A stretch of DNA of 64,000 nucleotides from Thermodesulfobacteriota bacterium (GTDB lineage Bacteria > Desulfobacterota_D > UBA1144 > Nemesobacterales > UBA2774): assembly GCA_965216785.1 (NCBI GenBank), contig OZ244197.1, forward strand, positions 1,888,001 through 1,952,000. The letters run 5' to 3'. Position 1 is the first letter of the stretch, and each line of letters opens with the position of its first letter. The notes under the pieces are model-generated. The model was not told the origin of the DNA and ran no database searches. It saw nothing but the letters and a program-made list of their open reading frames with translations. The translations under genes and the position numbers were made by a program. Below are positions 270 through 55,031 of this stretch, piece by piece.

Positions 270-1548
270 ATGATAAAGAAGATAGTTTTTAGTACAGCAT
301 TGGTTTTTCTTTCAATCGGGCCGTCTCTCTTGTTTGCCGAAACGTTGGATAAGCAGACGGCGCTTAAAAGGGCACTGGAGAATAACCCCTCGTATAAGGA
401 AAAGCTGTCCGAGATTAATGCCGCCGAGGGCGAGCGTGTTCAGGCCTCACTCCTGCCGAATCCGGGCGCGTTTTTCGAGCTCGAGAACTTTGCCGGGACT
501 AATGACAGGGAGGGCTTCGAGAGAACGGAGCTTACTGTCGGCCTTAAGCAAAAGATAGAGCTTGCCGGAAAGCGCCGCTACAGGACGGATATCGCCGAAG
601 CGGGCTTAAAGATAGCGCGTGAAAAAGCTCTGGCGGGGGCCCTGGGCCTTCTTTCTGAAACCGAATACGCCTTCATGCGCACGGCGGTGGCTAACGAGCG
701 CCTGGAGCTTGCCGAAAGACGCGTACAGCTCGCCGGGGAAACCATTGAGATCGTAGAAAGACGCGTTAACGCCGCCGCTTCGCCCGACGTCGAGCTTCTG
801 AAAGCCAAAATTGAAAAAGACGAAGCGGAAATAGAAGAGCACCACGTGGAAGAGGAATATAATATTGCCCGCAACGACCTTGCGCGCCTGATGGGTCTGA
901 AAGGCGGTGATGATCTCACTGTCGATGCGGATTTATCACTTCTTCCAGAGCTAATTGAGCTTGAGACCGTGACCCAGCTTCTGGAATCCACACCCGATGC
1001 GCGCGTTCGGCAGCTCGAAAAAACAAAGGCGCGCTCTTCACTCGATCTGGCAAAAGCAAGCGGCGTGCCCGACCCCACGGTGGGCCTGGGTGTGAGGCAG
1101 TTCTTCGATAACGACGATACGGCGCTCGTTGCCGAGTTTTCAATCCCCATCCCGGTGTTCGACAGAAACCAGGGAGGAGTAGGCAGCGCCCGAGCAGGTG
1201 TTAAACGCTCGGAAGAAAGGGCCCGCGTGACGGAGCTTGCTCTGTATCAGAGCGCAATACAGGCCTGGGAGTCATTCTGCGCCTCACTGGACGTAGCGCA
1301 GCGCTATCAAAACAGCATATTGCCCAATGCGAATAAGGCTTTCGGCGAGGCCGAGAGGGGATACAACCTCGGGGCGTTCAGCTATTTAGACCTCCTGGAC
1401 GCGCAAAGAACGCTAAATAAGGTGCAGTCAGAGTATTTAGACAACCTGCTCGAGCTTTACAAGGCCAAGGCGGAGATCGATTTTCTGATGGGCACCAATA
1501 AACCGCTCGTACAGGAAATTTCAGTAAACAATGAGGGGGGACAAAACA

Positions 1549-1556
<8 letters not shown>
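270..1556 (+). CDS. czcC: Outer-membrane factor (TolC family) of heavy-metal RND efflux, CzcC-like
   Basis: Signal peptide, 'LLPNP', 'SIPIPVFDRNQG' and 'LDLLDAQR' OMF motifs; operon with MFP and RND genes. Confidence 0.85.
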
Positions 1557-6007
<4,451 letters not shown>

Positions 6008-7634: not shown

Positions 7635-7663
7635 TTGACTGAAATCGTAAACGTTTATATATT
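7635..7663 (+). promoter_or_regulatory. sigma70-like promoter for the collagen-like gene
   Basis: TTGACT-N17-TATATT in an AT-rich intergenic region. Confidence 0.5.
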
Positions 7664-7689
7664 TGAGTGAATTTAAACGGAGGATGGAG

Positions 7690-8763
7690 ATGATTAGATC
7701 AATTACTCGTGGAACTCTAGTTCTACTGCTGGCTATATCTGTAAACACATTTGCAGCTCAACCGGAAGTAACTGTAACAGAAGTATTCGTTGATTTTGAT
7801 ACCGAGACAATCACAATCATGGGTGATAACTTTGATCTTGGCCCTAATCCGCTCAATGTTACATTAGGTGCCTATGGCAGCCTAAATATAGTTTCTGCCG
7901 AACCAAATTTAATAATTGTCGACTTTCCAGCAGGCGGCCTGCTGGCTGGTGATTTTCTTTTAACGGTATCCAGCGGGCCAGGCCAAAGAAAAAATGACGA
8001 ACATGTCGTAACTGTTGGAGCAACCGGGCCTGAAGGACCGGAAGGCACGCCCGGAGAGCAAGGCCCCCAGGGTGCGCAAGGCCCACAAGGAGAGCCGGGT
8101 CCTGAAGGTCCTCAGGGAGAGCCTGGGCCAGAGGGCCCGCAAGGAGAGCCCGGACCACCAGGGCCTCAGGGTGATGCCGGACCCCCGGGACCGCAAGGTG
8201 ATCCTGGTATGAATGGTGTAGAAGGGCATCCGGGACAGCCTGGTCCACAAGGCGAACAAGGACCTCAGGGTGATACTGGACCACCAGGACCGCAGGGTGA
8301 TGCCGGACCTCCGGGACCACAAGGTGATCCGGGTCCCCAGGGTATTCAAGGACCCCCGGGACCACAAGGTGACACAGGACCCCAGGGGATTCAAGGGCTT
8401 CCCGGACCGCCAGGGCTGCAGGGCAATCCCGGACCCCCGGGCCCAAAGGGAGATCCAGGACTACAAGGAGAGACCGGACCAGAGGGCCCGCAAGGAATCC
8501 CCGGACCGTCGGGAACATGGAGTTTCTTTACAGGCAACTGTCCAACCGGTGGTAATGCATGTCAATTTACGGCATCCTGTGGAGCTGGCGAAACAGCGGT
8601 ATCCGGAGCTTGCGGGCTTTTAACCGGGAGTCAAAATAGCAGGGATATTATGTATACCGGTCCTAATCCGTTAGACACAACTCAATGGATTTGCAGATTT
8701 GACAGGGGTGGAGGTGCAGCTTTTACAGTAGACTACGGGGTATTTTGTGTTCCAAATTCTTAA
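7690..8763 (+). CDS. Secreted collagen-like protein (signal peptide, small beta domain, ~56 Gly-X-Y triplets, Cys-rich C-terminal domain)
   Basis: Uninterrupted GXY run; GGAGG RBS before ATG 7690; signal peptide [22 protein letters not shown]. Confidence 0.9.
8017..8520 (+). repeat. Collagen Gly-X-Y coding repeat (~56 triplets)
   Basis: Counted from the translation GAT-GPE...GPS-GTW. Confidence 0.9.
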
Positions 8764-8867
8764 CCATCGGCTCTGCTGGATAAAATATATACCAAAATAA
8801 TATGCAATATTGTAATCGTGTATGCTCATACGGTATATTTACGCAATAAATACGGAGCTCGGTGATA

Positions 8868-9125
8868 ATGAACGAAAAACCTACTATAGCTGAAGATATT
8901 GATATTAATGAGGTAGAGGACGGCTACGTTATTTACCAAAAGGAAAATGACAAGGTTCACTACCTGAACAAGACTGCCGTGCTTGTACTCGAATCCTGCA
9001 CCGGGAAAAACACTGCTGCTGATATAGAGGTGATTGTAAAGGAGGCGTATAAGCTTCCTGAAGCACCACAAAAGGAAGTCGCCGACTGCCTCGATACACT
9101 CTTTCAAGAAGGTCTGATTAAATAA
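8868..9125 (+). CDS. PqqD-family / RiPP recognition element (RRE) protein
   Basis: 85 aa; 'VHYLNKTAVLVLESCTG...IEVIVKEAY...EVADCLDTLFQEGLIK' fits the PqqD pattern (LN.t...w...dG...l...y...dv..fl..L...gli). Confidence 0.85.
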   Translation: MNEKPTIAEDIDINEVEDGYVIYQKENDKVHYLNKTAVLVLESCTGKNTAADIEVIVKEAYKLPEAPQKEVADCLDTLFQEGLIK

Positions 9126-9958
9126 ATTACGAACGTAAGTACACGCTGCTCGACACGGTAATCACAATACGTACTGAAAGCGAGGTACTGGCGCGCCGTC
9201 TTGATTTTATAGTACAAGAGGCGGAGCACACGCTTCACCCCCTAAAAGACGCTACATACGAATTCATACTCAGGGACGGCGCTTACGAGATAAGGAAGGA
9301 TGGAAGTCTTTGTTTCTCCTCTTCCGACCTCTCAGACGCAGTCTTTAATCTGCAGTGGCTTATTCATAAGGAAGTATTGAAGAACGTTACAGAGTCTATA
9401 CGTATTCATGCGGGATGCGGGGAGCTCGACGGAAGGAGGTTTCTCGTCGCGGGCGACAAGGGGGCGGGCAAGACGACGCTCATGGTACGTCTATTGTTCG
9501 AGGGATTCCGCGTCATCGGTGATGAGCTGGTACTGGTCAGGGACAGGAGAGCAATCCCATTTCCCAGAAGGTTTCACATCAAACAAGAAAGTATGAACCT
9601 GCTGCCCGAGCTTAACAGCCTGTTTGCTTCCCTGCCATACAATATGACAAGCTACGGCCATAAGATGTTTTCATTCACTCCTCAGGATGCCGGATATGAG
9701 TGGAAGATCGACGAGGGTGACATTCATTCTATTTTTTATCTGGAACCCAACCACGGAGGGCAGACGCGCATAGAGGAATGCCCGAAATATATGATGGTCA
9801 ATAGGGTTATGCCTATGAGTTTTCTGTCTGAGACCGAGGATCATATGAAGATAAACCAGCTCTGTAATATGATTGATCGAGCAAACTGTTATATTTTGCA
9901 TGTTGGAGACCTTGAAGGGGCGGTTTCCACTATACAGGAAAAAATGTCTGTGCTATAA
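9122..9958 (+). CDS. HPr-kinase-related P-loop kinase (start uncertain: frame is open from ATA 9122; ORF track uses TTG 9377)
   Basis: 'IHAGC...LVAGDKGAGKTTL...GF.VIGDELV' matches the HprK-type His / Walker A / acidic-pair signature. Confidence 0.8.
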   Translation: MNYERKYTLLDTVITIRTESEVLARRLDFIVQEAEHTLHPLKDATYEFILRDGAYEIRKDGSLCFSSSDLSDAVFNLQWLIHKEVLKNVTESIRIHAGCGELDGRRFLVAGDKGAGKTTLMVRLLFEGFRVIGDELVLVRDRRAIPFPRRFHIKQESMNLLPELNSLFASLPYNMTSYGHKMFSFTPQDAGYEWKIDEGDIHSIFYLEPNHGGQTRIEECPKYMMVNRVMPMSFLSETEDHMKINQLCNMIDRANCYILHVGDLEGAVSTIQEKMSVL

Positions 9959-9959
9959 T
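9951..9959 (+). promoter_or_regulatory. Extended -10 promoter (TGcTATAAT) upstream of the precursor-Hint genes
   Basis: Perfect TGnTATAAT about 45 nt before ATG 10004, which has an AAGGAGG RBS. Confidence 0.45.
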
Positions 9960-10003
9960 GCGTAATTAGTATTATTAGACCTGCTATAAAGGAGGAACGT
10001 TAC

Positions 10004-10591
10004 ATGAGCGAGAAAAAATTTATAGATGAAGTTAATCCCGAAAGGCGCGAGTTTTTAGAGAAAGTGACCAAGGGAGCTTTTATCATCCCTACTGTAATAT
10101 CGGTGATGATGCTGAATCAGAAGCTTAACCTAACGACGGCCAACGCACAGAGCAACCTACCACCGTGCCTGTCTTGTGAGACTTTAATCTCCACCCCGGA
10201 CGGGAACGTCACAATAGTTGATTTAAAACCTGGGATGAAGGTCTATACCCTCGATACTAAAGGAAACAAGGTTGTAGAAGAGCTTGAGCTCGTATCAAAA
10301 GTAACGGTCCCTGAGACTCATACGCTCTTCAGTCTATGTTTTGGCGGCGGTACAGAGCTATTAGTTTCCGGTGCTCATCCGACAGCGGACGGCAGATATA
10401 TATATGATCTCAAACCGGGCGATATGATCGACGGCGCTGAGCTCTTATCCATCGAAAAGGTTAGCTACACAGCCGGATATACATATGACCTGCTACCGGC
10501 GGGAGATACTGGATGTTACTGGGCTGACGGGGTTCTTTTAGGCAGCACGCTAGCCGCAGAGTCAGAGAGCAGAATACGGAAGGCCTCTTAA
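10004..10591 (+). CDS. Putative precursor peptide 1: 48-aa leader + QSNLPP + C-terminal Hint domain (Cys55 at 10166)
   Basis: Hint blocks 'CLSCETLISTPDG', 'DLKPG', 'VSGAHP' and 'TYDL...YWADGVL'; leader shared with three paralogues. Confidence 0.85.
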   Translation: MSEKKFIDEVNPERREFLEKVTKGAFIIPTVISVMMLNQKLNLTTANAQSNLPPCLSCETLISTPDGNVTIVDLKPGMKVYTLDTKGNKVVEELELVSKVTVPETHTLFSLCFGGGTELLVSGAHPTADGRYIYDLKPGDMIDGAELLSIEKVSYTAGYTYDLLPAGDTGCYWADGVLLGSTLAAESESRIRKAS

Positions 10592-10642
10592 CAAGGCTCT
10601 AAGAGCTATAAAAACAGCACTTAAAAGAAGGAGGGTTCTTAC

Positions 10643-11227
10643 ATGAGCGAAAAAAAATTTATAGATGAAGTTAACCCCGAGAGACGCGAATTTCTGGAAA
10701 AAGTAACTAAAGGCGCATTTATTATCCCAACTGTCGTTTCTGTAATGATGTTGAATCAAAAACTTAACCTTACGACAGCCAACGCGGCGAGCAACATGAT
10801 TTGTCTTTCTTGCGAGACTTTAATATCTACGCCCGAAGGTGAAATTCGGGTAGTTGATTTGAAACCGGGAATGCTTGTCTTTACCCTGGACATGAACGGA
10901 AACAAGGTCATAGAGCGGTTAGAGCTAGTATCGAAAGTAACGGTCCCTGAAACTCATGTACTCTGCCATCTGGTTTTTAGTGATGGGAGAGAGCTCTTTG
11001 TGTCGGGTGGGCATCCGACAGCGGACGGTAGAGATGTTAACGAGCTTGCGCCGGGTGACATGCTCGACGGAGCGGAGGTGGTCTCTGTAGTGAATATTCG
11101 CTACATAGCCGGTCATACCTATGACTTGCTCCCTGCCGGAGAGACGGGAAATTACTGGGCAAACGGTGTTCTGTTGGGCAGCACGCTCGCACCTGAGTCC
11201 GTGAGCAGAATACGGAAGGCCTCTTAA
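10643..11227 (+). CDS. Putative precursor peptide 2: 48-aa leader + ASNMI + C-terminal Hint domain (Cys54 at 10802)
   Basis: Tandem paralogue of 10004-10591; 'CLSCETLISTPEG', 'VSGGHP' and 'TYDL...YWANGVL'. Confidence 0.85.
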   Translation: MSEKKFIDEVNPERREFLEKVTKGAFIIPTVVSVMMLNQKLNLTTANAASNMICLSCETLISTPEGEIRVVDLKPGMLVFTLDMNGNKVIERLELVSKVTVPETHVLCHLVFSDGRELFVSGGHPTADGRDVNELAPGDMLDGAEVVSVVNIRYIAGHTYDLLPAGETGNYWANGVLLGSTLAPESVSRIRKAS

Positions 11228-11337
11228 CTGTAAGGCAAGTTAAGCTAAGGTTTCAGCCTGTTACATTAAGTGCATAATTCATCTTTATGCTATGTAGAGC
11301 TTTCATCCTGTATTAAAATTTTTCCAATGGGTAAAAA

Positions 11338-12444
11338 TTGAGCGATATCCTGTTTTCCGCCTCTATGATCGTCCGAAACGAGGAAAAATTCCTTGAGGGA
11401 TGCCTTGAGTCCATTAGAAACGTCGTGGACGAAATAGTAATAGTCGATACAGGCTCAGTAGACGGCACAAAGGAGATTGCCTTAGAGTACGGTGCGAGGG
11501 TATTTGATTTCCCGTGGAACGGAGATTTCGCGGCAGCGCGTAACGAAGCCCTTCGTCACTGCAGGGGCGAATGGATACTGTATATAGACGCTGACGAACG
11601 GGTGAGGCCCGCCGAAAAGTCCTACGTCACTGAAATTCTCTCGGACGTATCTAAAGTCGCATATACACTTTTGTTTTACCCGATAGTGGGCTATACGGGA
11701 TACCGTGAGCACCGCATCTTCCGAAGCGATCCCCGCATACGTTTTCAGGGGGTTATACACGAAGGTATGCTTTCCGCGATCCAGGACGTTGCGCGCGAGG
11801 ACGGGCTCGAAATCGGTTATTGCGATCTTGTAATAGACCACCTGGGATACGAGGGTGACCTTACGCATAAGCACGAAAGGAACCTGCCCCTACTGAGAGA
11901 TCAGATTGAAAACGACCCAGAAAGAATTTACCTCAGATGGCAGCTCGGCGCGGCGCTTAAGGGACTTGGGGACTTGGATGGTGCGGAGAGGGCGTGGATG
12001 GACGCGATCGACATTATACGCGGAAAGGAAACGGTAGGCCCGGAAGACAGCCATCCGTACTACGACATGATCCGCCTCCTGAATGAGAGTGAGCGTGACT
12101 ACACAGAGCTTCTGGCCGAGTCTTCAAAGCTGTTTCCGGACAACTATTTAATAACCTGGACCAAGGCCATGACGCTGATGCACGATCAAAGATTTGAGGA
12201 TGCTGCGCGGGTGTTTGAATCTCTCGCCGCGATAGATCCGGCAAGCCTTGACGGGGAGATACTTGCCTATAACGCGCGCATATTCGATGAGCTTTCCTAT
12301 GAACCCCTCGCCACGTGTTATTTTAAGCTCGGCAAGCTAGAAGAGAGCGAGAAATATTACGCGCTCGCGCTCAGGTGTGATCCTGAAAATCAGCAATACC
12401 GTACGAAGCTCAAGTTCGTTTCAGCGTTGGTAAATAAATCGTGA
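11338..12444 (+). CDS. GT2 glycosyltransferase with C-terminal TPRs
   Basis: 'SMIVRNEE', 'VDTGSVDGT', 'DFAAARN', 'IDADE' and 'HLGY', plus helical TPR repeats. Confidence 0.88.
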   Translation: MSDILFSASMIVRNEEKFLEGCLESIRNVVDEIVIVDTGSVDGTKEIALEYGARVFDFPWNGDFAAARNEALRHCRGEWILYIDADERVRPAEKSYVTEILSDVSKVAYTLLFYPIVGYTGYREHRIFRSDPRIRFQGVIHEGMLSAIQDVAREDGLEIGYCDLVIDHLGYEGDLTHKHERNLPLLRDQIENDPERIYLRWQLGAALKGLGDLDGAERAWMDAIDIIRGKETVGPEDSHPYYDMIRLLNESERDYTELLAESSKLFPDNYLITWTKAMTLMHDQRFEDAARVFESLAAIDPASLDGEILAYNARIFDELSYEPLATCYFKLGKLEESEKYYALALRCDPENQQYRTKLKFVSALVNKS

Positions 12445-13182
12445 TTGATTATGAAAGATGAACCGCTTGTATCATGCCTTTGCGTTACAAGAGACAGAGT
12501 GCCTATGCTCAAAAGAGCGATAAGGTCGTTCAGGGACCAGGATTACGGGCACAAGGAGCTGGTGATCGTGTATGAGAGCGACGACGGTGAAACAGAGGAA
12601 TTTTTAAGAGAAGTTTCAGACGGTAACATTCTCAAAATAAAAGTTCCGGCAGAGCCCAGACTCACGCTCGGAGAGCTCAGGAACCTGGCTCTTAAAGAGA
12701 GTACGGGAGAGTATTTTTGCCAGTGGGACGACGACGATTTCTATCATAATCAGAGGGTTTCATTCCAGATGGAAGTACTGCGCGAGTCTGCTATGCCCGC
12801 CTGCGTAATGGTCCACTGGCTCATATACGATTTGGCGCATGCTCAGGCCTACGTGTCTAATATGAGGCCTTGGGAAGGCAGTCTGCTCTGTAAAAAATCA
12901 CTCATAGATGAAGAGCTTAAGTACGAGGATAAAGGCAGGGGGGAGGACACGGCTTTAATAAGTGAGCTGTTTACGAGAAACCTCGCATTTCCCGTAATTA
13001 TGCCAAAGCTATATATATACGTATACCATGGGGGTAATGTGTGGACAGATGAGCATTGGGGCAGAATATTCAGCGCGAGCACGAAGCTCTCTGAGGAGTC
13101 GAGCAGGGTGATAAGGGACATATTGGACGGGAAATACACAGGTGATGAAGCCTCCGGGCTGCTGGATGATATAACTGAATGA
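12445..13182 (+). CDS. GT2 (GT-A) glycosyltransferase
   Basis: 'PLVSCLCVT', 'LGELRN', 'QWDDDD' and 'GEDT'. Confidence 0.82.
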   Translation: MIMKDEPLVSCLCVTRDRVPMLKRAIRSFRDQDYGHKELVIVYESDDGETEEFLREVSDGNILKIKVPAEPRLTLGELRNLALKESTGEYFCQWDDDDFYHNQRVSFQMEVLRESAMPACVMVHWLIYDLAHAQAYVSNMRPWEGSLLCKKSLIDEELKYEDKGRGEDTALISELFTRNLAFPVIMPKLYIYVYHGGNVWTDEHWGRIFSASTKLSEESSRVIRDILDGKYTGDEASGLLDDITE

Positions 13183-13209: not shown

Positions 13210-14958
13210 ATGGCGATACCCAAAATATTGTATCAGACCTATAAGACCAAAGAGATCCCGGAGCGGCTCGAAGAGTATCGCCGTAAGCTGCTAGAGCTTC
13301 ACCCCGGCTGGGAATACCGGTTTTACGGAGACGACGAGTGCAGGGATTTAGTGAAGAGGTTTTTACCCTCGTTTCTCCCGGTATATGATAGCTGCTCGAT
13401 ACCGGCTCAGAAAGCCGATATATTCCGCATCATAGCGGTCTGGGCGCTAGGCGGGTTTTACCTGGATATCGACGTCGAATGTATACGGAGCGTCGATCAG
13501 CTCTGTGAATTCCACTTAGTATTTGCCGAGGAGCTCACACTTACTCAAGAGCAGGCGAAGGAACTGGGTCACAGGGACCGCCTAAGGGTGGGGAACTTTA
13601 TGTTCGGCAGTGAGCAGGGCCATCCTTTTCTTCTGCGTATTCTAAGGAAAATGGCGGAGGAAAGCAGGCGTGAGATTCGCTCTGAGAACGATGTGCTGGA
13701 ATCCACAGGGCCGGGCCTTGTCACTACCGTATACCATGATGCGTGTGAGGAGCTAAGGGACATCGTACTGCTGCGGAACATCGACCGTGAATGCCCTGTC
13801 ACTGGCGGTGTAGCCTGCCACTTCGGAAATTATGCCATACACCACCATGAAGGCTCCTGGAGGTGGGGGCATGTTAAATCTCCCAAGCTGAAAAACTTTG
13901 CCCGAAGTCAAAAGATCACACCGACTGAGATAAACAAAATCTGCAGCGAGATCGATTCTGAATTAGAAAGGACAAGTAGACCCGAGGATATTTATATATT
14001 AAGAGCATACAAGGAGAAACCATACGATGGCTTAACCTACGTGTTTGACCGAACTTCGGGGCTCGGCATCATTTCTGACAATACGAGCAGTCTTGAAGAT
14101 AAAAAAGTCCTCGTGAGCGGGATGCCCATTATGTTTACCGACAAAGTGTCTAAGCAAAATACCAATGTTATATACACGACATTTGAAAGTACGTCGCTTC
14201 CCCCAGATTGGGTGAGTGCGATAAACGGCTTATTTAACTACTGTATAGTTCCGCACCAGCACGTAAAGAAAGTGTTTGAGGATTCGGGGGTGAGCATACC
14301 AGTCAGCGTCATACACCAGGGATTTACTAGGTATAGGAGGAAAGATAGGAAAGCTCTTGACGATAAGACATACAAGATCGGATTTCTCGGGGTCCCTGTA
14401 GAGAGGAAGAATCTATTCAAGCTATATCAGGCTTGCGCACATCTTCTGGCGGATATACCTGAACTGAGGCTTAGTGTTCATATCCCGGATTATTACGGTG
14501 GGATGAATGTGGAATATCTGGGGATGGTCAAAATGTCACCCTTCGTAGATTGGACCGAAGGTCATCTGGGCGAGAATGAGATCGCAGAGTGGTACAGCGG
14601 GCTTTCGTGTTATGTATTTCCGTCGAGCGGGGAAGGGTGGTCCTTTACTCCGCGGGAAAGTCTTTATCTCGGAGTACCGACTATTTTGTCGGATATCCCT
14701 GTTCACAGGGAGCTTATTGAATCCGGTTACTGCAAAGCGATACCCGTAAGTGGTAGGGAAGAGGCGGTATTTAACTCAAAGGTGTCCGGACAATGGGACA
14801 GGGTTGCGGTTGAGGACATAGAAAACACGATACGAGACCTGTATCTGAATTACGGGAGTTATTATATTAAGGCTATTCAGGGAAGCCGCTGGATAGAGAA
14901 TAAATGGACCAATGAAAGCACTCAGCAGTTACTGCTCGATTATTTGACAAAGGTGTAA
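13210..14958 (+). CDS. Bifunctional glycosyltransferase: N-terminal GT32/OCH1-like DxD domain + C-terminal GT4-like (GT-B) domain
   Basis: 'IPKILYQT', 'KADIFR', 'GGFYLDIDV' and 'STGPG'; then 'YVFPSSGEGWSFTPRESLYLGVPTILSDIPVHRE'. Confidence 0.82.
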   Translation: MAIPKILYQTYKTKEIPERLEEYRRKLLELHPGWEYRFYGDDECRDLVKRFLPSFLPVYDSCSIPAQKADIFRIIAVWALGGFYLDIDVECIRSVDQLCEFHLVFAEELTLTQEQAKELGHRDRLRVGNFMFGSEQGHPFLLRILRKMAEESRREIRSENDVLESTGPGLVTTVYHDACEELRDIVLLRNIDRECPVTGGVACHFGNYAIHHHEGSWRWGHVKSPKLKNFARSQKITPTEINKICSEIDSELERTSRPEDIYILRAYKEKPYDGLTYVFDRTSGLGIISDNTSSLEDKKVLVSGMPIMFTDKVSKQNTNVIYTTFESTSLPPDWVSAINGLFNYCIVPHQHVKKVFEDSGVSIPVSVIHQGFTRYRRKDRKALDDKTYKIGFLGVPVERKNLFKLYQACAHLLADIPELRLSVHIPDYYGGMNVEYLGMVKMSPFVDWTEGHLGENEIAEWYSGLSCYVFPSSGEGWSFTPRESLYLGVPTILSDIPVHRELIESGYCKAIPVSGREEAVFNSKVSGQWDRVAVEDIENTIRDLYLNYGSYYIKAIQGSRWIENKWTNESTQQLLLDYLTKV

Positions 14959-15077: not shown

Positions 15078-15248
15078 ATGAGCGACAAGAAATTTCCGGA
15101 GGACGTGAACTCCGAAAGACGCGAGTTTATAGAGAAAGTGACCAAGGGCGCTTTTATTATCCCCACTGTAATATCGGTGATGATGTTGAATCAGAAGCTG
15201 CACCTTACGACAGCAAACGCGAATAGTAACATCCCACCGCCACCTTAA
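15078..15248 (+). CDS. Putative precursor peptide 3 (56 aa): shared leader + NSNIPPPP, no Hint domain
   Basis: AAGGAG RBS before ATG 15078; MSDKKFPEDVNSERREFIEKVTKGAFIIPTVISVMMLNQKLHLTTANANSNIPPPP. Confidence 0.85.
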   Translation: MSDKKFPEDVNSERREFIEKVTKGAFIIPTVISVMMLNQKLHLTTANANSNIPPPP

Positions 15249-15322: not shown

Positions 15323-15502
15323 ATGAGTGACAAGAAATTTCCGGAGGACGTGAACTCCGAAAGGCGCGAGTTTTTAGAGAAAGTGACCAAGGGCGCTTTT
15401 ATCATCCCCACGGTAATATCAGTAATGATGCTGAATCAGAAGCTAAATCTGACGACAGCCAACGCACAGAGTAATATGACTATCATTAATGAACAGCCGT
15501 AA
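15323..15502 (+). CDS. Putative precursor peptide 4 (59 aa, absent from the ORF track): shared leader + QSNMTIINEQP, no Hint domain
   Basis: Manual translation MSDKKFPEDVNSERREFLEKVTKGAFIIPTVISVMMLNQKLNLTTANAQSNMTIINEQP*; AAGGAG RBS. Confidence 0.85.
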   Translation: MSDKKFPEDVNSERREFLEKVTKGAFIIPTVISVMMLNQKLNLTTANAQSNMTIINEQP

Positions 15503-17151: not shown

Positions 17152-18159
17152 TTATCTTGTCAGGCGCCAGTAAAGCCTTCTAAACTTTCTTAGTATCTTA
17201 CTTTCGATTACCGTCAATGTTACACCTTTTAAAGTTCTAAGCGGGGATCCCTTAATAACGTCTTTCTCTAGATCACTGATTTTATAACGCTTCTGCTCAC
17301 CTGCAGCAGGGCTTGTATTTTCGAGTATGGTTTTCATTCTTTCTTGGAAGAGTTTGTCATCTGCATCCGTACCGCTCGTGTCCGATACCAATATGTGACC
17401 CCTGGGGGTTCTTAGGTACTTTCTCGCGCCCCCTCCGGGGGCGCAAAGGTGCCAGGCATTGGCCTCTGTAGTGACCATGAGTGTGTAATTTTTTTCAACG
17501 AGCCTCGCGCATAAATCGCTCTCTTCCCGGTGCGCCTGGTCCGAGTACCCGTCAACGGCCCATCCCCCTGCTTCCTCTACCGCTTTGCGGCGGTAGCATA
17601 TCGCCCCACCGAGGAGACTATCGACTTCTATGACTTCCGGATCATTATAATAGTGGTGGCCCTGCAGTTTCCAGGTCAGCTCATCAAGAGTAGATGTGAA
17701 TGACCTTTCCGCCAGATTCAAATCCAAGCTCGCCTTTTTCGCTTGAGGTACTGGAAAGCACCCGCCCACTGCAGCAAGCGGCCTGTCGGCGAAAAAATGA
17801 AACGGCTTTAGTATGTTTTCAATGAAACTTGCGTCCGGAAGCATATCGTCATCTATCCTCAGTATGAACTCGATCGATTGCGGCACGGCCTCCATTGCCT
17901 GCTGGTGTCTCTTCCAGCCATCTTTAGTACGAATGATTATGATCTCGTGACCTATGTTTCTGGCAACCGTAAGAAGGTCGGTAATCGCATCGTCTCTCTC
18001 GACAGGTGAATCGCTCTGGTCGTTGATTACAATCATAAAATTCGTAAAAGTTTGATTGAGCAGAGAGTTCAGCAGCACTGCAAGGTAGGAAGGACGGTTC
18101 TTCGTTGGTATGGCTACAGCTATTTTTTCGTCCTTTTTGATTTGCCTTAGTCTATCCAT
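17152..18159 (-). CDS. GT2 glycosyltransferase
   Basis: 'IPTKNRP', 'RIDDD', 'AGGW' and 'EESDLCAR'. Confidence 0.8.
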   Translation of the reverse strand: MDRLRQIKKDEKIAVAIPTKNRPSYLAVLLNSLLNQTFTNFMIVINDQSDSPVERDDAITDLLTVARNIGHEIIIIRTKDGWKRHQQAMEAVPQSIEFILRIDDDMLPDASFIENILKPFHFFADRPLAAVGGCFPVPQAKKASLDLNLAERSFTSTLDELTWKLQGHHYYNDPEVIEVDSLLGGAICYRRKAVEEAGGWAVDGYSDQAHREESDLCARLVEKNYTLMVTTEANAWHLCAPGGGARKYLRTPRGHILVSDTSGTDADDKLFQERMKTILENTSPAAGEQKRYKISDLEKDVIKGSPLRTLKGVTLTVIESKILRKFRRLYWRLTR

Positions 18160-50089: not shown

Positions 50090-50911
50090 ATGACGGAACT
50101 TGAAAGAATGGAGGAGCTTATCTCGCTTTACGCTCTCGGGATACTAGAGGGAGAAGAGCTTACAGAAGCGGAAAGGCTGATCAGCGCCGGCTCTTCCGAG
50201 ACGCTCTCGATGCTGAGGGATTATGAAAGAGTGGTCTCTATGATGTCCTACGCTACGCCGGGTGTGGCTCCCGACCCGGCTCTAAAAAAAAAGCTCCTCT
50301 CCGATTTAAAACAGGGTCTTTCAGCATATAAGGTAAAGGAAACACCGCCGTCACTGCTGGACAGGATCCGTCCCCTGTGGCTCGGCCTTGGCGGCGCAGT
50401 AGCCGCGGCGGCCATACTGGTACTCGTAATCTCTAACATATCTCTACGTAATAACCTCAATGACAGTTCGACCTTAATAGCGGGGCTGGAGGAGCGCGTC
50501 ACGCTCCAGCAGCAGGAGCTGCAGTCGCTTGAAGGCGAGCTTGCCCAAAATGAAGAGCTTGTAAGTTTCCTCCAAGATCCGGACGTAGTTGTCGTAAAGC
50601 TCTCGGACACCCATCCGGTGCACGACCCCGGGGGCAGGGTGCACTGGGACAAGGGCGACGATGAGGCCCTTTTTGTAAGCTATAACCTGCCTGAGACCCC
50701 TTCGGGTAAGTCCTATCAATGGTGGGTAGTGGCGGACGATACGCCCAGGAGCGCCGGAGTGTTCAAAGTAGGCCCCGACGGAACGAGCCTTATGAAAATC
50801 GGCGAGCTTTCTGATTTCGGCAATATTCAGAACTTCATTCTAACCATGGAGCCAGAAGGCGGAGCAGAGAGTCCGTCGAGCGAAAGGCTCCTGATCGCGG
50901 ATTCTTTATAA
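50090..50911 (+). CDS. Anti-sigma factor, RskA family
   Basis: 'YALGIL', 'PDPALKKKL', TM, 'YQWW...PRSAGVF' and 'LTMEPEGG...PS'. Confidence 0.87.
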   Translation: MTELERMEELISLYALGILEGEELTEAERLISAGSSETLSMLRDYERVVSMMSYATPGVAPDPALKKKLLSDLKQGLSAYKVKETPPSLLDRIRPLWLGLGGAVAAAAILVLVISNISLRNNLNDSSTLIAGLEERVTLQQQELQSLEGELAQNEELVSFLQDPDVVVVKLSDTHPVHDPGGRVHWDKGDDEALFVSYNLPETPSGKSYQWWVVADDTPRSAGVFKVGPDGTSLMKIGELSDFGNIQNFILTMEPEGGAESPSSERLLIADSL

Positions 50912-50946
50912 GTTCCTACTATACTCCAGACGGAAGCAGCAGAAAT

Positions 50947-50973
50947 AAAAAAGGGAGCCGAAGCCCCCTTTTT
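50947..50973. terminator. Bidirectional terminator (GGGRGC-UUCG-GCUCCC family, copy 1, read on the minus strand)
   Basis: aaaaaagggagccgaagcccccttttt. Confidence 0.8.
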
Positions 50974-51007
50974 GTAATCTATCTTGATGTACCTTTTTAG
51001 TTTCTAA

Positions 51008-51904
51008 TTAAGCTACGGACTGTCTTCTTCTGATAGCAAGTAGCCCGATAATTCCCAGCACCCCTGCCATTGCTATAAGTCCCCACTGGCTGAGCGTCGG
51101 GATGGGGCGGGGCTGAATCTGCCCGAACACTAAACCGTCCGCGCAATCGGGCAGGGCGCCTAATTCCGTAAAATCGCCCGTTTCGGTATCTACAATTATC
51201 AGAGTGCTCTCGGACCTTGACTTAAAAATCCCATAAAGCTCGCCCGTTACCGGGTGGAAATCGAGTGCGCCGATAGTGCCCCGTCTGAGTACACCCCCAA
51301 CCTCGGTGCCCTGGCCCGTGTCCGGGTTAATGGTGATTAGAGTCGTGGCGTTGTATGAGAAAAGTGTGCCGTCATCCCTCCGCGCGAGGCCGTGACCGCC
51401 AAAGTCAAACCCGGTCGGGCCGATTACAGTTCCCTGTCCTGTGGAGGTGTTTATGCTTTGAAAGGCGGTGTCGATATCTTCATCGCACCTTCTGGCTGTG
51501 GCGTAGAGCATATTCGTATTCGGGTCAAGGGTCATGCCAGGCGCCCTTCCGCAGGTCATGCTGCCGCTGCCGTCGTTTCCGATCTCACCGATCAGGCTAC
51601 CCTGGCCCGTGAACGGGTTTATATCTATCAGAACGGCGATGTCTTCTTCGTCATCGTCATTCGCGCTGCCGACCAGCCGTCCGTCCGGCAAGATTTCAAG
51701 TGCGGTTAGGCCGTCAAACCCGGTCTCCCCAATAAATTCGGCCTCTGCTGTTGCGGGGTTGATTCTGTAGAGTGAGCTGAATTGATTTACATCGCCGCAG
51801 AACTCTGACGCCGCGCCGAGCAGGAATACTTCCTGGGCTTGCGAAAGCCCCGAAGCGGTTAATGCCAAGAAAAATGATAATACGGTTAATTTCAGTAGTT
51901 TCAT
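51008..51904 (-). CDS. IPTL-CTERM surface protein with beta-repeat domain
   Basis: Signal peptide; C-terminal 'RPIPTLSQWGLIAMAGVLGIIGLLAIRRR'; GGAGG RBS before ATG 51904. Confidence 0.87.
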   Translation of the reverse strand: MKLLKLTVLSFFLALTASGLSQAQEVFLLGAASEFCGDVNQFSSLYRINPATAEAEFIGETGFDGLTALEILPDGRLVGSANDDDEEDIAVLIDINPFTGQGSLIGEIGNDGSGSMTCGRAPGMTLDPNTNMLYATARRCDEDIDTAFQSINTSTGQGTVIGPTGFDFGGHGLARRDDGTLFSYNATTLITINPDTGQGTEVGGVLRRGTIGALDFHPVTGELYGIFKSRSESTLIIVDTETGDFTELGALPDCADGLVFGQIQPRPIPTLSQWGLIAMAGVLGIIGLLAIRRRQSVA

Positions 51905-52108
51905 CCTGGTTCCTCCTTTAATTATTAACCATCCATTGTACATTATTTTTAATCAAAATTGAAGGTGGAAAAACTACGGCGACTCCGACATTTGTGGAAT
52001 GTGGGAGTGGCGGGGTTTTTAAAGGCTAATAATTACCGCGCAATTGGCAATTTTATCCCGTTTGTTATAAAATACTGTATTAGCTAGTTTCCAAGAGGAG
52101 GATTCAAG

Positions 52109-52909
52109 ATGATTTCAATAAATAATATTAAACGATCAAGTTTCATTTTATTTGTGTTATTGTTAGCGACATTTATTGCAGGGCCTACCCAGCAAGTGTC
52201 TGCAACCGACTTTCCGGGGCCGGATGCTTTTGGGTATGTAGGGACTACTGTCCCATTCAATCTGCGTGATGTTAGTGCTACGGGTACAAATGTGCCGCTT
52301 AGTGATGATGAAGTGAGCGGTGCAATACAAATACCGTTTCTATTTAACTTTTATGGGATTGTCTATACTCAGCTATTTATTTCATCCAATGGTTTTATAA
52401 AATTCACGGGCGGCGGCAGCAGCGGATGCTGCTCTGGGGAACCGATACCAACAGCAGGCGGTGATGCCGATAATCTTATCGCCGGCTGGTGGAACGACTT
52501 GTACCCACCAGGAAGCGGGGAAGTCCGCTACCAGACATTGGGCGCTGAAGGAAGCAGGGAGTTTGTAGTTGGTTTTTATAACATGCAGTATTGCTGCGGC
52601 GGTAGTACCAATGTCACATTCGAGATGATACTTCACGAGGAGACCCAGGATATTGAGCTTCAGTACGCGTCCGCGCCCGGGCGACCCGGCGGCAGCAATA
52701 CGAGCGTGGGTATCGAAAACAATAACGGCAGAGTCGGCTTGCAGGTTGCTTTTGGAGAATTCGATTTTAATGATCAGGGATTCCTGCTCTCTCCGGAAGG
52801 AAGAGTCAGGCCTATCCCGACGCTTTCCGAGTGGGGCCTTTTGGCCATGGCGGGAGTTTTGGGAATCGTAGGGCTCTTAGCAGTCCGCAGAAGAAAAGCC
52901 ACGGCGTAA
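52109..52909 (+). CDS. IPTL-CTERM surface protein
   Basis: 'RPIPTLSEWGLLAMAGVLGIVGLLAVRRRK'; 'IPFLFNFYG...ISSNG' nidogen-like segment. Confidence 0.87.
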   Translation: MISINNIKRSSFILFVLLLATFIAGPTQQVSATDFPGPDAFGYVGTTVPFNLRDVSATGTNVPLSDDEVSGAIQIPFLFNFYGIVYTQLFISSNGFIKFTGGGSSGCCSGEPIPTAGGDADNLIAGWWNDLYPPGSGEVRYQTLGAEGSREFVVGFYNMQYCCGGSTNVTFEMILHEETQDIELQYASAPGRPGGSNTSVGIENNNGRVGLQVAFGEFDFNDQGFLLSPEGRVRPIPTLSEWGLLAMAGVLGIVGLLAVRRRKATA

Positions 52910-52945
52910 CTACTCGCGGTAACAAATAGAAAAACTAAAGTAAGG

Positions 52946-52970
52946 AAAGGGAGCTTCGGCTCCCTTTTTT
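52946..52970 (+). terminator. Terminator, copy 2
   Basis: aaagggagcttcggctcccttttt. Confidence 0.85.
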
Positions 52971-53115
52971 ATTTCCGCCATTACCTTCTGCACCTTTTCC
53001 GCGAACACAAGCTCTTCGAGCATGACAAATCCTCCGGTTAACAAATAGCAATAAAAATAAAATGTGCTATTATAGAAATGTATTCGCTACATTTCTTAGA
53101 AGGAGGATAGTTACG

Positions 53116-53925
53116 ATGAAAAAAGTTAGTTATATCTTATTTTTACCGCTTGTTTTATGCTCATTTCTTCTCATGGGTTTTGTTCTACCGCCTGACGAGG
53201 ATAATCTTGTCGTGAACGGCAGCTTTGAGACCGGCGACTTCACCGGATGGATCCGGGATGATATTAGCGGGGCCGGCATCTGGGACGTTTACACAGGCAC
53301 GCCGCCGCCTTTATTCTTCCCTCCGCCAGTCGGCGATTTCGCAGCTACCACTTTTCAGATGAGTCCCGACTCGAATATCCTTTATCAGGACATTCAGCTG
53401 CCCGAGAATTCAGAAATAACGTGCTCGGCGATCGTGTACTACGTAAACGAGGCTTTAATCGGTGGTGGTGGTGTGGAGTCCGAAACCTTCACTAAAGGTC
53501 TTGTTGCCGCAGATCCCGGTGATGTGACAGCCGAGCGCATATTCATCATAGGCGACGGGCTGACTTTAAATCAACCAAATCAGCAGTACAGGGTGGACAT
53601 TATGGACCCGGACGCGCCTCCCTTCGATACTGGCGCGGGAGTGCTGATGAACCTTTTCCAGACACTGCCAGGAGATCCGGACATACGTGATTATACGACC
53701 CTTAATTTCGACCTCACCCCTTACGCAGGACAGACGGTGAGGATAAGGGCGGCTGTTGCCGTAACGGAAAACCCGCTGTTTGGCGCGATAGACGCTGTAA
53801 CGTGTGCTTGGGTACCTACAGCAAGACCGATCCCAACCTTGTCTCAGTGGGGGCTGATCGCTATGGCAGGGTTGATTGGAATCATAGGGCTTCTTGCTGT
53901 CAGGAGAAAGAGGCTGACCGCTTAA
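53116..53925 (+). CDS. IPTL-CTERM surface protein
   Basis: 'NGSFETGDFTGW' and 'RPIPTLSQWGLIAMAGLIG'; AGGAGG RBS before ATG 53116. Confidence 0.87.
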   Translation: MKKVSYILFLPLVLCSFLLMGFVLPPDEDNLVVNGSFETGDFTGWIRDDISGAGIWDVYTGTPPPLFFPPPVGDFAATTFQMSPDSNILYQDIQLPENSEITCSAIVYYVNEALIGGGGVESETFTKGLVAADPGDVTAERIFIIGDGLTLNQPNQQYRVDIMDPDAPPFDTGAGVLMNLFQTLPGDPDIRDYTTLNFDLTPYAGQTVRIRAAVAVTENPLFGAIDAVTCAWVPTARPIPTLSQWGLIAMAGLIGIIGLLAVRRKRLTA

Positions 53926-53959
53926 AAAAGCCCGAGGAAATAACTTAAATTTACTAAAC

Positions 53960-53983
53960 AAAAAGGGAGCTTCGGCTCCCTTT
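53960..53983 (+). terminator. Terminator, copy 3
   Basis: aaaaagggagcttcggctcccttt. Confidence 0.8.
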
Positions 53984-54074
53984 GTTATGTCTTTTATAAT
54001 CATTGCTTTTATTTTCAATATTGCTATAATGCTGTTTAAGTACTGTTTTTAAATCTGCATGAGGAGGAAACAAG

Positions 54075-55031
54075 ATGAGGAACTTACTTGTATTAACTAT
54101 ATTCGCGGTATCTTTAGGCTTTTTCTTTACCCCTGCGTCACAAGCAGGAATTGCTCTACCGCCGCTCTGGCAGGACAACTTCGGCGATGAGCTTGAAGAC
54201 GTTTCAGACTGTGACGACTGCGAGGAGATGATTACGCTACCCATCCCGTTCCCGTTTAACGGCAACACCTACAATACGGCGTATGTGGGTTCGAACGGCT
54301 GTATACAGTTTGACGGCCTGGGCCTGGACGATGAAATAGACTATGACCACTGGAATTATATGGAAGAATTTTTGGCCGACTCAGACCCCGACAACCCCGA
54401 GATTTGTCCTTTCAATACCGACCTTGACACTGAAGAGGGCGGCACGGTTTATTATAACAACTCAAGTAACCCATTAATAATAACCTGGGACGGAGTTGCC
54501 GCTCATAACGATACCGATATTATTAATACATTCCAGATACTTTTATACCTAGACGGAAGTATAGTGCTCAGCTTCAACGGTATCGGAGTAGGTGAAGATT
54601 TATTAGATCTCGATGGAGGCATAGTAGTCGGCGTTACACCAAGCGACTTCCCGTTTGACGGCGAGCTTTTCGTTCCGGGCGACCCGGGCCCCAATGATCT
54701 AAATTCAGGTACAGCGGCTTACAACCGGGCCACAATCTACGAGCGCTGGTGCTATGATGAGGCCAACTCGTGCGGAGTCGAGGGAAGTGACACCGGACTT
54801 CCCGGGCCTATTAACACAGCGTTTGACCTGGACTTTCAGAGCGTTTGCTTTGCTCCTATAGGAGCGGGATTTCAAGTATCGAGCGCCGGAGAGGAAAACC
54901 CGGCCTTTGTTTGCGCGGCGATGTTGGTAAGGCCGATACCGACGCTTTCAGAGTGGGGACTGATCGCTATGGCCGGAGTATTGGGCATAGTTGGGTTGTT
55001 GGTTCTCAGAAGAAGAAATGTGACGGCTTAA
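54075..55031 (+). CDS. IPTL-CTERM surface protein (acidic, nidogen-like segment)
   Basis: 'LPIPFPFNG...YVGSNG' and 'RPIPTLSEWGLIAMAGVLG'. Confidence 0.87.
   Translation: MRNLLVLTIFAVSLGFFFTPASQAGIALPPLWQDNFGDELEDVSDCDDCEEMITLPIPFPFNGNTYNTAYVGSNGCIQFDGLGLDDEIDYDHWNYMEEFLADSDPDNPEICPFNTDLDTEEGGTVYYNNSSNPLIITWDGVAAHNDTDIINTFQILLYLDGSIVLSFNGIGVGEDLLDLDGGIVVGVTPSDFPFDGELFVPGDPGPNDLNSGTAAYNRATIYERWCYDEANSCGVEGSDTGLPGPINTAFDLDFQSVCFAPIGAGFQVSSAGEENPAFVCAAMLVRPIPTLSEWGLIAMAGVLGIVGLLVLRRRNVTA

Follow-up and report, generated by a model that had tools for sequence, protein, structure and literature searches.

Four genes in the window (the whole stretch of 64,000 nucleotides that was analysed) encode probable precursor peptides that share a 48-residue leader and lie in one cassette with a PqqD-type protein, an HprK-like kinase, glycosyltransferases and a nucleotidyltransferase-fold enzyme. 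The feature is real and resembles the pathway to the linear polyphosphorylated peptides (LPP); its distinctive part is the fusion of a Hint (Hedgehog/intein) domain to two of the precursors. There is very little doubt that the four genes are substrates of this cassette. The best-supported reading of the leader, for which the evidence is circumstantial, is a dual one: docking to a RiPP recognition element (RRE) and Tat export.

Precursor genes and their shared leader

The precursor genes start at positions 10004, 10643, 15078 and 15323, each preceded by a ribosome-binding site of the AGGAG/GGAG type. Their parts are as follows:

10004..10147, + strand: leader of precursor 1 (48 aa; residues 1-48), with the RR motif, FxxPxV within a hydrophobic stretch, a conserved c-region and A-N-A
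10043..10063, + strand: twin-arginine motif R14-K20 (each Arg in 237/238 and the Phe in 238/238 family sequences)
10079..10096, + strand: RRE-type motif F26-x-x-P29-x-V31 (F/Y and P in 238/238; kept in 9/9 distant relatives)
10115..10147, + strand: c-region N38-A48, ending in a predicted signal peptidase I site (pN/pS 0.056)
10148..10165, + strand: core 1, 6 aa, Q49-P54; Ser50 is the predicted phosphorylation site (conservation, analogy with LppA Ser3)
10166..10591, + strand: Hint domain of precursor 1 (Pfam, AF2/Foldseek, conservation)
10643..11227, + strand: precursor 2, 194 aa, with its leader at 10643-10786, a 5-aa core at 10787-10801 and Hint from Cys54 at 10802
15078..15248, + strand: precursor 3, 56 aa, leader and 8-aa core, without Hint
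15323..15502, + strand: precursor 4, 59 aa, leader and 11-aa core, without Hint

The motifs that an initial annotation had described as common to the four copies, a twin arginine of the ERREF(L/I)EK type, FxxPxV, and A-N-A followed by x-S-N, are indeed there in every one: each leader has R14-R15-x-F17, F26-x-x-P29-x-V31 and A46-N47-A48, with R14-R15, F26, P29 and the A-N-A at identical positions throughout. Its further proposal, that a cut after A-N-A leaves tiny cores, holds for copies 3 and 4 and fails for copies 1 and 2, whose ORFs (195 and 194 aa) run on into a Hint domain (141/142 residues), so that this cut alone would release proteins of 147 and 146 residues. Contigs from four runs, which cover parts of 8800-11400 with no single piece spanning all of it, list no indel.

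A joint pattern, RRxF..FxxPx[VIL]..AxA, composed post hoc after inspection of the four copies, occurs four times in the 6.24 million residues of the six-frame genome translation, each time in one of these genes; the RRE motif alone is weak (6957 genome matches). In 20,000 shuffles of the leader the Tat-like filter described below was passed at a frequency of 0.0002, a terminal AxA arose at 0.0035 and [FYW]xxPx[VIL] at 0.031. Across 64 non-identical DNA copies, which come from the window and from 20 related loci, the leader has a pN/pS of 0.11 with synonymous sites ~65% diverged; the leaders thus owe their likeness to selection and not solely to recent duplication. Constraint is strongest in the c-region N38-A48 and, since it exceeds what signal peptidase needs, this region probably serves an enzyme too.

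Nine distant relatives (30-62% identity) keep RR in 8/9, Phe in 9/9, [FY]xxPxV in 9/9 and an in-register AxA in 7/9, while the other leader positions vary. Among the exceptions, one has KR and another is without AxA; Ser at +2 is found in only 4/9. (Four of the 20 profile matches, the long and repetitive P0334, P0337, P0338 and P0341, were excluded as unrelated, P0334 being the one of them that was inspected.) A tree of 59 leader DNA copies, weakly supported, splits the Hint-fused leaders across clades. A PDB sequence search with the leader profile returned chance matches only, and an Atlas search with a short precursor returned 30 matches with no shared Pfam family; the leader also weakly matches TIGR04117, another putative RiPP leader (E ~0.09).

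Proposed export and leader removal

The Tat consensus is given as S-R-R-x-F-L-K (PMC7317946, available part), and the E-R-R-E-F-L-E-K of the leader agrees with it at RR, F and L and deviates at the S and K positions; it is Glu that precedes RR, where the consensus has Ser/Thr. The initial annotation had also hesitated over a short h-region and the Lys that follows it. Both doubts turn out weaker than claimed: the uncharged stretch is 16 residues long, where a Tat h-region should have 12 or more (Kyte-Doolittle mean of 2.2 over G24-L37, with Pro29 inside), and a basic residue in the c-region is typical of Tat signals, where it serves as a motif for Sec avoidance (PMC7317946, same part). Such a residue, Lys40, precedes A46-N47-A48. 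The same part of that source and the available text of PMC13673990 have Tat tolerating small, unfolded, hydrophilic cargo. The distance from RR to the cleavage site is 35, and candidate distances in the genome's Tat-like proteins range from 16 to 36. A Tat-like filter (TatFind-like and, as with the signal-peptide filter used below, a crude home-made rule) is passed by 22 of 2453 ATG-started ORFs of at least 150 aa, including both long precursors, and by 236/239 members of the leader family.

Other features of the leader sit less well with a Tat signal. The n-region (residues 1-23) has a net charge of 0 in all four copies, where six Tat-like substrates from the same genome range from +2 to +6; TIGR01409 and the Pfam Tat models have no match to the four copies at E 0.1, and the Tat HMM gives weak, sub-threshold matches in two of eight distant relatives scanned. 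Because the leader is nearly invariant within the family, the invariance of RR there is unspecific evidence for Tat. The source genome does encode the machinery (TatC and two genes of the TatA family, TatA/B/E). TatC is present in 18/19 other leader-bearing genomes, a count drawn from related and therefore not independent genomes; in G062, which is 85% complete, the cassette is present and no TatC match was found.

The earlier remark that no dedicated leader peptidase or ABC exporter is visible is borne out for the cassette and for the 62 of 98 flanking ORFs, from 13 loci, that were scanned (ORFs that looked like repeats of others were left out): no ABC exporter, S26, C39 or lasso B2 match was found among these flanking ORFs. 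The genome has one S26 peptidase, a 320-aa frame ~1 Mb away and the single match to PF10502, a search that could miss a divergent SipW-like gene. A-x-A is kept in 237/238 precursors and followed by Gln in 165/238. On what we can read from the sequence, the balance tips towards a leader that directs Tat export and is cleaved after A-N-A (Ala48).

Of 116 signal peptides crudely predicted for the genome, 37 have Gln after AxA, versus a background of 3.2%, and a glutaminyl cyclase is encoded at G000:C1:1832530-1833255; together these amount to an apparent 'Q-rule' in the source lineage, a name that comes from Bacteroidota. An N-terminal Gln on the mature core would likely become pyroglutamate. A-Q-S is also found in LPP, where the cut lies before the Ala, so that the +1 Gln may be an inherited kinase context and not a signature of the signal peptide.

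Two nearby candidates for a dedicated export route were set aside. CusCBA-like efflux genes lie upstream (window 270-6007), and CusA has no match in the related loci. An M64 peptidase encoded near seven related cassettes was considered as a required leader protease and has no match in the source genome.

The cassette

The genes around the precursors are:

8868..9125, + strand: discrete PqqD-type RiPP recognition element (PF05402 over cut-off)
9122..9958, + strand: HprK-like kinase, 278 aa, Walker A (TIGR04352 69 bits, under the cut-off of 200)
11338..12444, + strand: GT2 glycosyltransferase with TPR repeats (best NCBIfam match the SunS family, under cut-off)
12445..13182, + strand: second GT2 glycosyltransferase
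13210..14958, + strand: two-domain glycosyltransferase, PF04488 DXD (GT32) plus GT4/PF00534
15822..17099, + strand: NTP_transf_5 (PF14907) nucleotidyltransferase-fold enzyme, DxD at 137-139

Within the genome, PF05402 matches the PqqD protein and nothing else. The AF2 model of PqqD (pLDDT 89.7) has PqqD and the lasso proteins TbiB1/TfuB1 as its top folds (TM ~0.76, E 0.002-0.009, none reaching 0.001), and its Asn34, invariant in 80 homologues, aligns by eye with Asn33 of LppB, the residue that fixes the leader Pro (PMC13381572, available part). LppB also hydrogen-bonds a leader Tyr (same source and part); the aromatic residue of the motif here is Phe, not Tyr. Searches with PqqD did not return LppB, and five of 12 metagenome loci (L109, L111, L112, L113 and L114) have no PqqD match within the available DNA. 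PqqD likely binds the leader through FxxP. FxxPxV lies within the hydrophobic stretch, so that a PqqD docked there would hide the export signal for as long as modification goes on, in the manner of Tat signal chaperones.

The kinase frame opens at an ATA that overlaps the TAA stop of PqqD (ATAA, 9122-9125), an arrangement present in all 18 loci examined. It is likely a translationally coupled non-canonical start that would keep the level of kinase low; gene callers would shorten the kinase by 85 residues. A frameshift fusion of PqqD and kinase at the overlap was considered and discarded, there being no conserved slippery site by eye.

The gene order recurs as PqqD-kinase-[Hint precursors]-GT2/TPR-GT2-GT32/GT4-[short precursors]-NTP_transf_5. 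Among 17 loci selected for carrying PqqD and kinase, all have the three glycosyltransferases, 14 have the NTP_transf_5 gene within the available DNA, and 11 have Hint-fused copies while six have none. The leader is present in 18/32 other genomes of the family and in 0/28 from other families of the order; with a wider profile it appears in 20/120 genomes of the phylum, one of them outside the family. Leader and kinase occur jointly in 17/32 family genomes and are both missing from 13, with two discordant cases at contig ends; the genomes are related, and these co-occurrence counts are not independent. Distant metagenome loci, with PqqD 60-68% identical, retain the same gene set. In L103 (identical to L105, the two being one case) no kinase lies between PqqD and the precursor, and the core is without Ser; a kinase may lie elsewhere.

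Some cassettes carry additions. A class I SAM methyltransferase (71-83% identical) lies just upstream of PqqD in seven loci (L026:4778-5710, L027, L029-L031, L034 and L044), and the M64 peptidase already referred to lies near the cassette, likewise in seven related loci; no orthologue of either was found in the source genome. In loci L026-L029 of genus g3 a second GT2-TPR gene is placed between the short precursors (L026:13193-14302). In the window an extra GT2 flanks the cassette at 17152-18159 on the - strand, with a 79% identical counterpart on the other side of the cassette in L037 (14333-15337).

Cores and Ser50

Position 50 is Ser in 234/238 precursors and Thr in the remaining 4/238. Past x-S-N, the one thing that the cores share, they are hypervariable (106 different ones in the 119 short precursors and 90 in the 116 fusions that were parsed). 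They are 4-18 residues long, mostly 4-13, with basic and aromatic residues nearly absent. The codon for the conserved Ser (for example window 10151-10153) is exclusively AGC/AGT, in 63/63 Ser-bearing copies. LppK polyphosphorylates Ser3 of a core that starts A-Q-S (PMC13381572, available part), and by this analogy the cassette's kinase probably phosphorylates Ser50. A lasso pathway needs an NTP transferase of the PsmN type to place hexoses on phosphoserine (PMC6993621, available part); by a similar analogy, it is reasonable to expect, with somewhat less assurance, that sugars are added to the peptide.

In 53 of 119 short cores the Ser is followed by an N-x-S/T sequon. N-glycosylation was considered and not adopted: the genome (92% complete) has no STT3/PglB match, and cores 1 and 3 are without the sequon. 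Some cores contain collagen-like Gly-Pro-Thr repeats (L030:13711-13962, L031:12475-12675, L033:6812-7027). A collagen-repeat exported protein is encoded directly upstream of PqqD in the window (7663-8763), with no match in the related loci.

The Hint domain

In copies 1 and 2 the core ends exactly where the Hint domain begins, at its Cys1 (Cys55 and Cys54, respectively). Pfam Hint_2 scores 26.1 bits for copy 1 and 28.3 for copy 2, both under the cut-off of 28.4; an AF2 model of precursor 1 built on 78 homologues reaches a pLDDT of ~90 for residues 61-180 and stays under 50 for most of the leader, and Foldseek finds 65 PDB matches at E<=0.001, of which all among those listed are inteins, BILs or Hedgehog. 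The domain of precursor 1 has Cys55, Ser122-x-x-His125, Asp162 and Ser181, and ends in a short tail without His-Asn; all 78 aligned sequences have Cys55, His125, Asp162 and Ser181. The leader-Hint fusion is present in all of the best 120 homologues listed, and so is Cys1 (116 by pattern, 4 by eye), with the block-B His in 114, the block-F Asp in 119, the terminal Ser in 114 and His-Asn in none.

Canonical inteins and A-type BILs splice by way of a C-terminal His-Asn, and in B-type BILs the terminal Asn is replaced by Cys/Ser/Thr, as by Ser181 here. Since Cys1 and its partners are kept and His-Asn is absent, this Hint domain would be expected to make the N-terminal thioester without going on to splice. 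An alignment by eye places Ser181 at Cys143 of the Hedgehog sequence in PMC12054796, the residue which carries the branched intermediate (same source, available part), and B-type BILs cleave at either end (PMC5874633, available part). It is very likely that the domain cleaves itself off at its Cys1. Cores 1 and 2 would then need two cuts for their release, one by signal peptidase and one by thioester-mediated self-cleavage of Hint.

Fused copies persist in three genera and have also been duplicated to solo sites. Within the phylum the Hint domain is matched only in family f1, in 15/120 genomes. Its donor was not found, an Atlas search giving generic Hint clusters, and a mobile or viral origin was rejected on finding no relative in viral contigs or plasmids. 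Solo Hint-fused precursors lie directly upstream of genes for IPTL-CTERM surface proteins at L039:5607-7384, L041:5878-7746 and L042:6163-7734, and another, in L043, lies beside a different glycosyltransferase cluster. Short precursors with Cys-Leu or Cys-Met at the end, and fusions that are frameshifted or truncated, resemble remnants of Hint (L036:6676-6846; P0030, P0044, P0327, P0329), hinting at its repeated loss; an insertion-sequence-like ORF pair adjoins the precursor in L036.

Relation to known systems

The LPP are made by the lppA-K-B-S-D-N cluster of Paenibacillus alginolyticus; LPP clusters bring together an RRE, an HprK kinase, an NTP transferase, a SipW-like peptidase and an MsbA-like exporter, and sit in capsule loci; LppS cuts the tail of the leader after Thr, and LppN has no detectable product in its own system (all from the available part of PMC13381572). 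The window's cassette is like them in its discrete RRE, HprK-like kinase and NTP transferase, in lacking a cyclase and in its glycosyltransferase-rich context. The precursors are alike too: a conserved leader with aromatic-x-x-Pro-x-Val and a tail that looks similar is followed by a variable core that has a Ser, preceded by Gln, close to its beginning, and Ser50 lines up with the phosphorylated Ser3 of LPP. Set by eye against the LPP consensus YxxPxVLxHQxIxFETxxS, the leader shows comparable elements in an unchanged order, apart from a Phe where LPP has Tyr and from two insertions; a post-hoc motif of this LPP type has four matches in the genome, all of them these genes. The initial annotation had looked to lasso leaders for comparison, but LPP, whose cores carry the modified Ser at their start, fits better.

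The differences from LPP are nonetheless substantial. No SipW-like LppS or MsbA-like LppD was found in the cassette or in the scanned flanks, and the leader has an RR n-region, ~4 extra hydrophobic residues following the RRE motif, and a pair of residues giving rise to the AxA, all of which would be the expected look of a switch from dedicated to housekeeping export. The cores are mostly 4-13 aa, as against ~45, the motif has Phe for Tyr, and there are three conserved glycosyltransferases in the cassette, Hint fusions and a Gram-negative host. The text of PMC13381572 gives AQSNWK; in its supplement AQSW occurs 51 times and AQSN not once, so that the Asn after Ser here is not shared with LPP. 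The terms twin-arginine, Tat, intein and Hint do not occur in the main text of that paper. Since two defining features of LPP, LppS and the exporter, were not found in the cassette and scanned flanks, we do not class the window's system as LPP, LPP-like as its working may be.

Other systems are more distant. The phospho-glycosylated lasso peptide pseudomycoidin (PsmK/PsmN; PMC6993621, available part) shares the RRE, the HprK kinase and an NTP-transferase family enzyme acting on Ser; in contrast with it, the cassette has no lasso cyclase (no match among its genes) and no ABC exporter, and the Ser is near the N-terminus of the core, not C-terminal. For lasso B2 the genome has nothing over cut-off, PF13471 giving only a partial, sub-threshold match. 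HPr-rel-A (TIGR04352/TIGR04353) likewise pairs an HprK-related kinase with a PqqD-family chaperone, but the scores are under both cut-offs (69 vs 200 for TIGR04352; 24.5 vs 35 for TIGR04353). With Hedgehog the long precursors share the Hint fold with Cys1, block-B His and block-F Asp, and the arrangement of signal peptide, passenger and C-terminal Hint; they differ in a passenger of 4-13 residues that is probably modified, in S-x-x-H vs T-x-x-H and, from inteins as well, in a tail of 12-33 aa without His-Asn, hence without canonical splicing. The sterol-recognition region is longer than such a tail. In the openly accessible literature searched, no description was found of a Tat-exported RRE precursor or of a Hint-fused RiPP precursor.

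A proposed pathway and its alternatives

The full pathway that we propose, which we rate as evenly poised between right and wrong, would produce LPP-like linear phospho-glycopeptides. PqqD would bind the FxxPxV of the leader, the HprK-like kinase would phosphorylate Ser50, and the NTP_transf_5 enzyme and the three glycosyltransferases would add sugars; Tat would export the precursor, and the housekeeping signal peptidase I would cut after A-N-A. In copies 1 and 2 Hint would cut itself off at Cys1, hydrolysis being the default fate of its thioester, which would leave a free C-terminus and a product like that of the short copies, 4-13 residues long. A more elaborate version, a bacterial Hedgehog-like RiPP pathway in which the precursor, phospho-glycosylated in the cytoplasm with guidance from the RRE, is exported folded through Tat and cleaved by signal peptidase I, and the Hint thioester is handed to a nucleophile, is unlikely. 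In it the thioester would form at Cys55, perhaps to be relayed to Ser181, and the nucleophile might be an envelope lipid, a glycan, a protein or the core's own amine, giving an anchored or cyclised glycopeptide; no dedicated protease, ligase or exporter would be needed. A pyroglutamyl N-terminus would block head-to-tail closure for cores that start with Gln.

We also consider it rather unlikely that the leader is an enzyme-recognition handle and nothing else, its RRxFL helix binding a modifying enzyme, an unlinked protease cutting in the LPP register (after Thr45) or at another place, and export being left to an unlinked transporter or absent. What gives this idea its force is that the whole leader, and the c-region above all, is under much tighter constraint than an ordinary signal peptide calls for; N38-T45 also aligns with the LPP tail, in which LppS cleaves after Thr, and the neutral n-region, the want of a Tat HMM match and the weak match to TIGR04117 (E ~0.09) all fit. 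It is countered by the survival of RRxF and AxA in distant relatives while the residues between them vary, by what the leader gains relative to LPP (the RR n-region, ~4 hydrophobic residues, AxA) in a cluster without LppS and LppD, and by there being one S26 match in the entire genome. Quite unlikely, in our estimation, is a peptide that stays in the membrane as an anchor or primer, inserted by Tat with its signal uncut or slowly cut, and with a surface glycan on its phosphoserine. A-x-A in 237/238 precursors, with Gln, the genome's usual post-cut residue, next in 165, speaks for cleavage and against such an anchor, which is otherwise in keeping with cores of 4-18 residues that have few basic or aromatic residues and no motif past x-S-N, with three or four glycosyltransferases per locus, with the occurrence of LPP clusters in capsule loci and with solo Hint precursors directly upstream of IPTL-CTERM genes in three loci.

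The Hint domain, finally, might be a mere passenger that contributes no chemistry to the core, either removing itself by hydrolysis in the cytoplasm or travelling as inactive, folded Tat cargo. This strikes us as improbable. Six of 17 cassettes do without a Hint-fused copy, short copies outnumber fused ones, and broken or truncated remnants (P0327, P0329; cores ending Cys-Leu or Cys-Met) are found; against this, the invariance of Cys55, His125, Asp162 and Ser181 (78 aligned), persistence in three genera and duplication to solo sites argue for a selected activity. Cytoplasmic hydrolysis is, moreover, compatible with the LPP-like pathway proposed above, and it is the inactive version alone that truly competes with it.

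If that pathway is correct, this would be a RiPP class whose export runs through a borrowed Tat system and whose leader is taken off by an equally borrowed signal peptidase; one leader would do three jobs (RRE docking, kinase context and export), and some precursors would set their own C-terminus by a Hint domain, for which no precedent was found in the literature searched. The family offers more than 100 natural cores, a compact cassette and, as ready-made controls for its Hint-fused copies, the short ones. It makes testable what NTP_transf_5 enzymes and neighbouring glycosyltransferases put on a phosphoserine of the LPP type, and how bacterial non-splicing Hint domains use their thioester.

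Elsewhere in the window, a sigma/anti-sigma-like pair is followed, at 50090-55031, by several exported-looking proteins in a row, each of ~270-320 aa.
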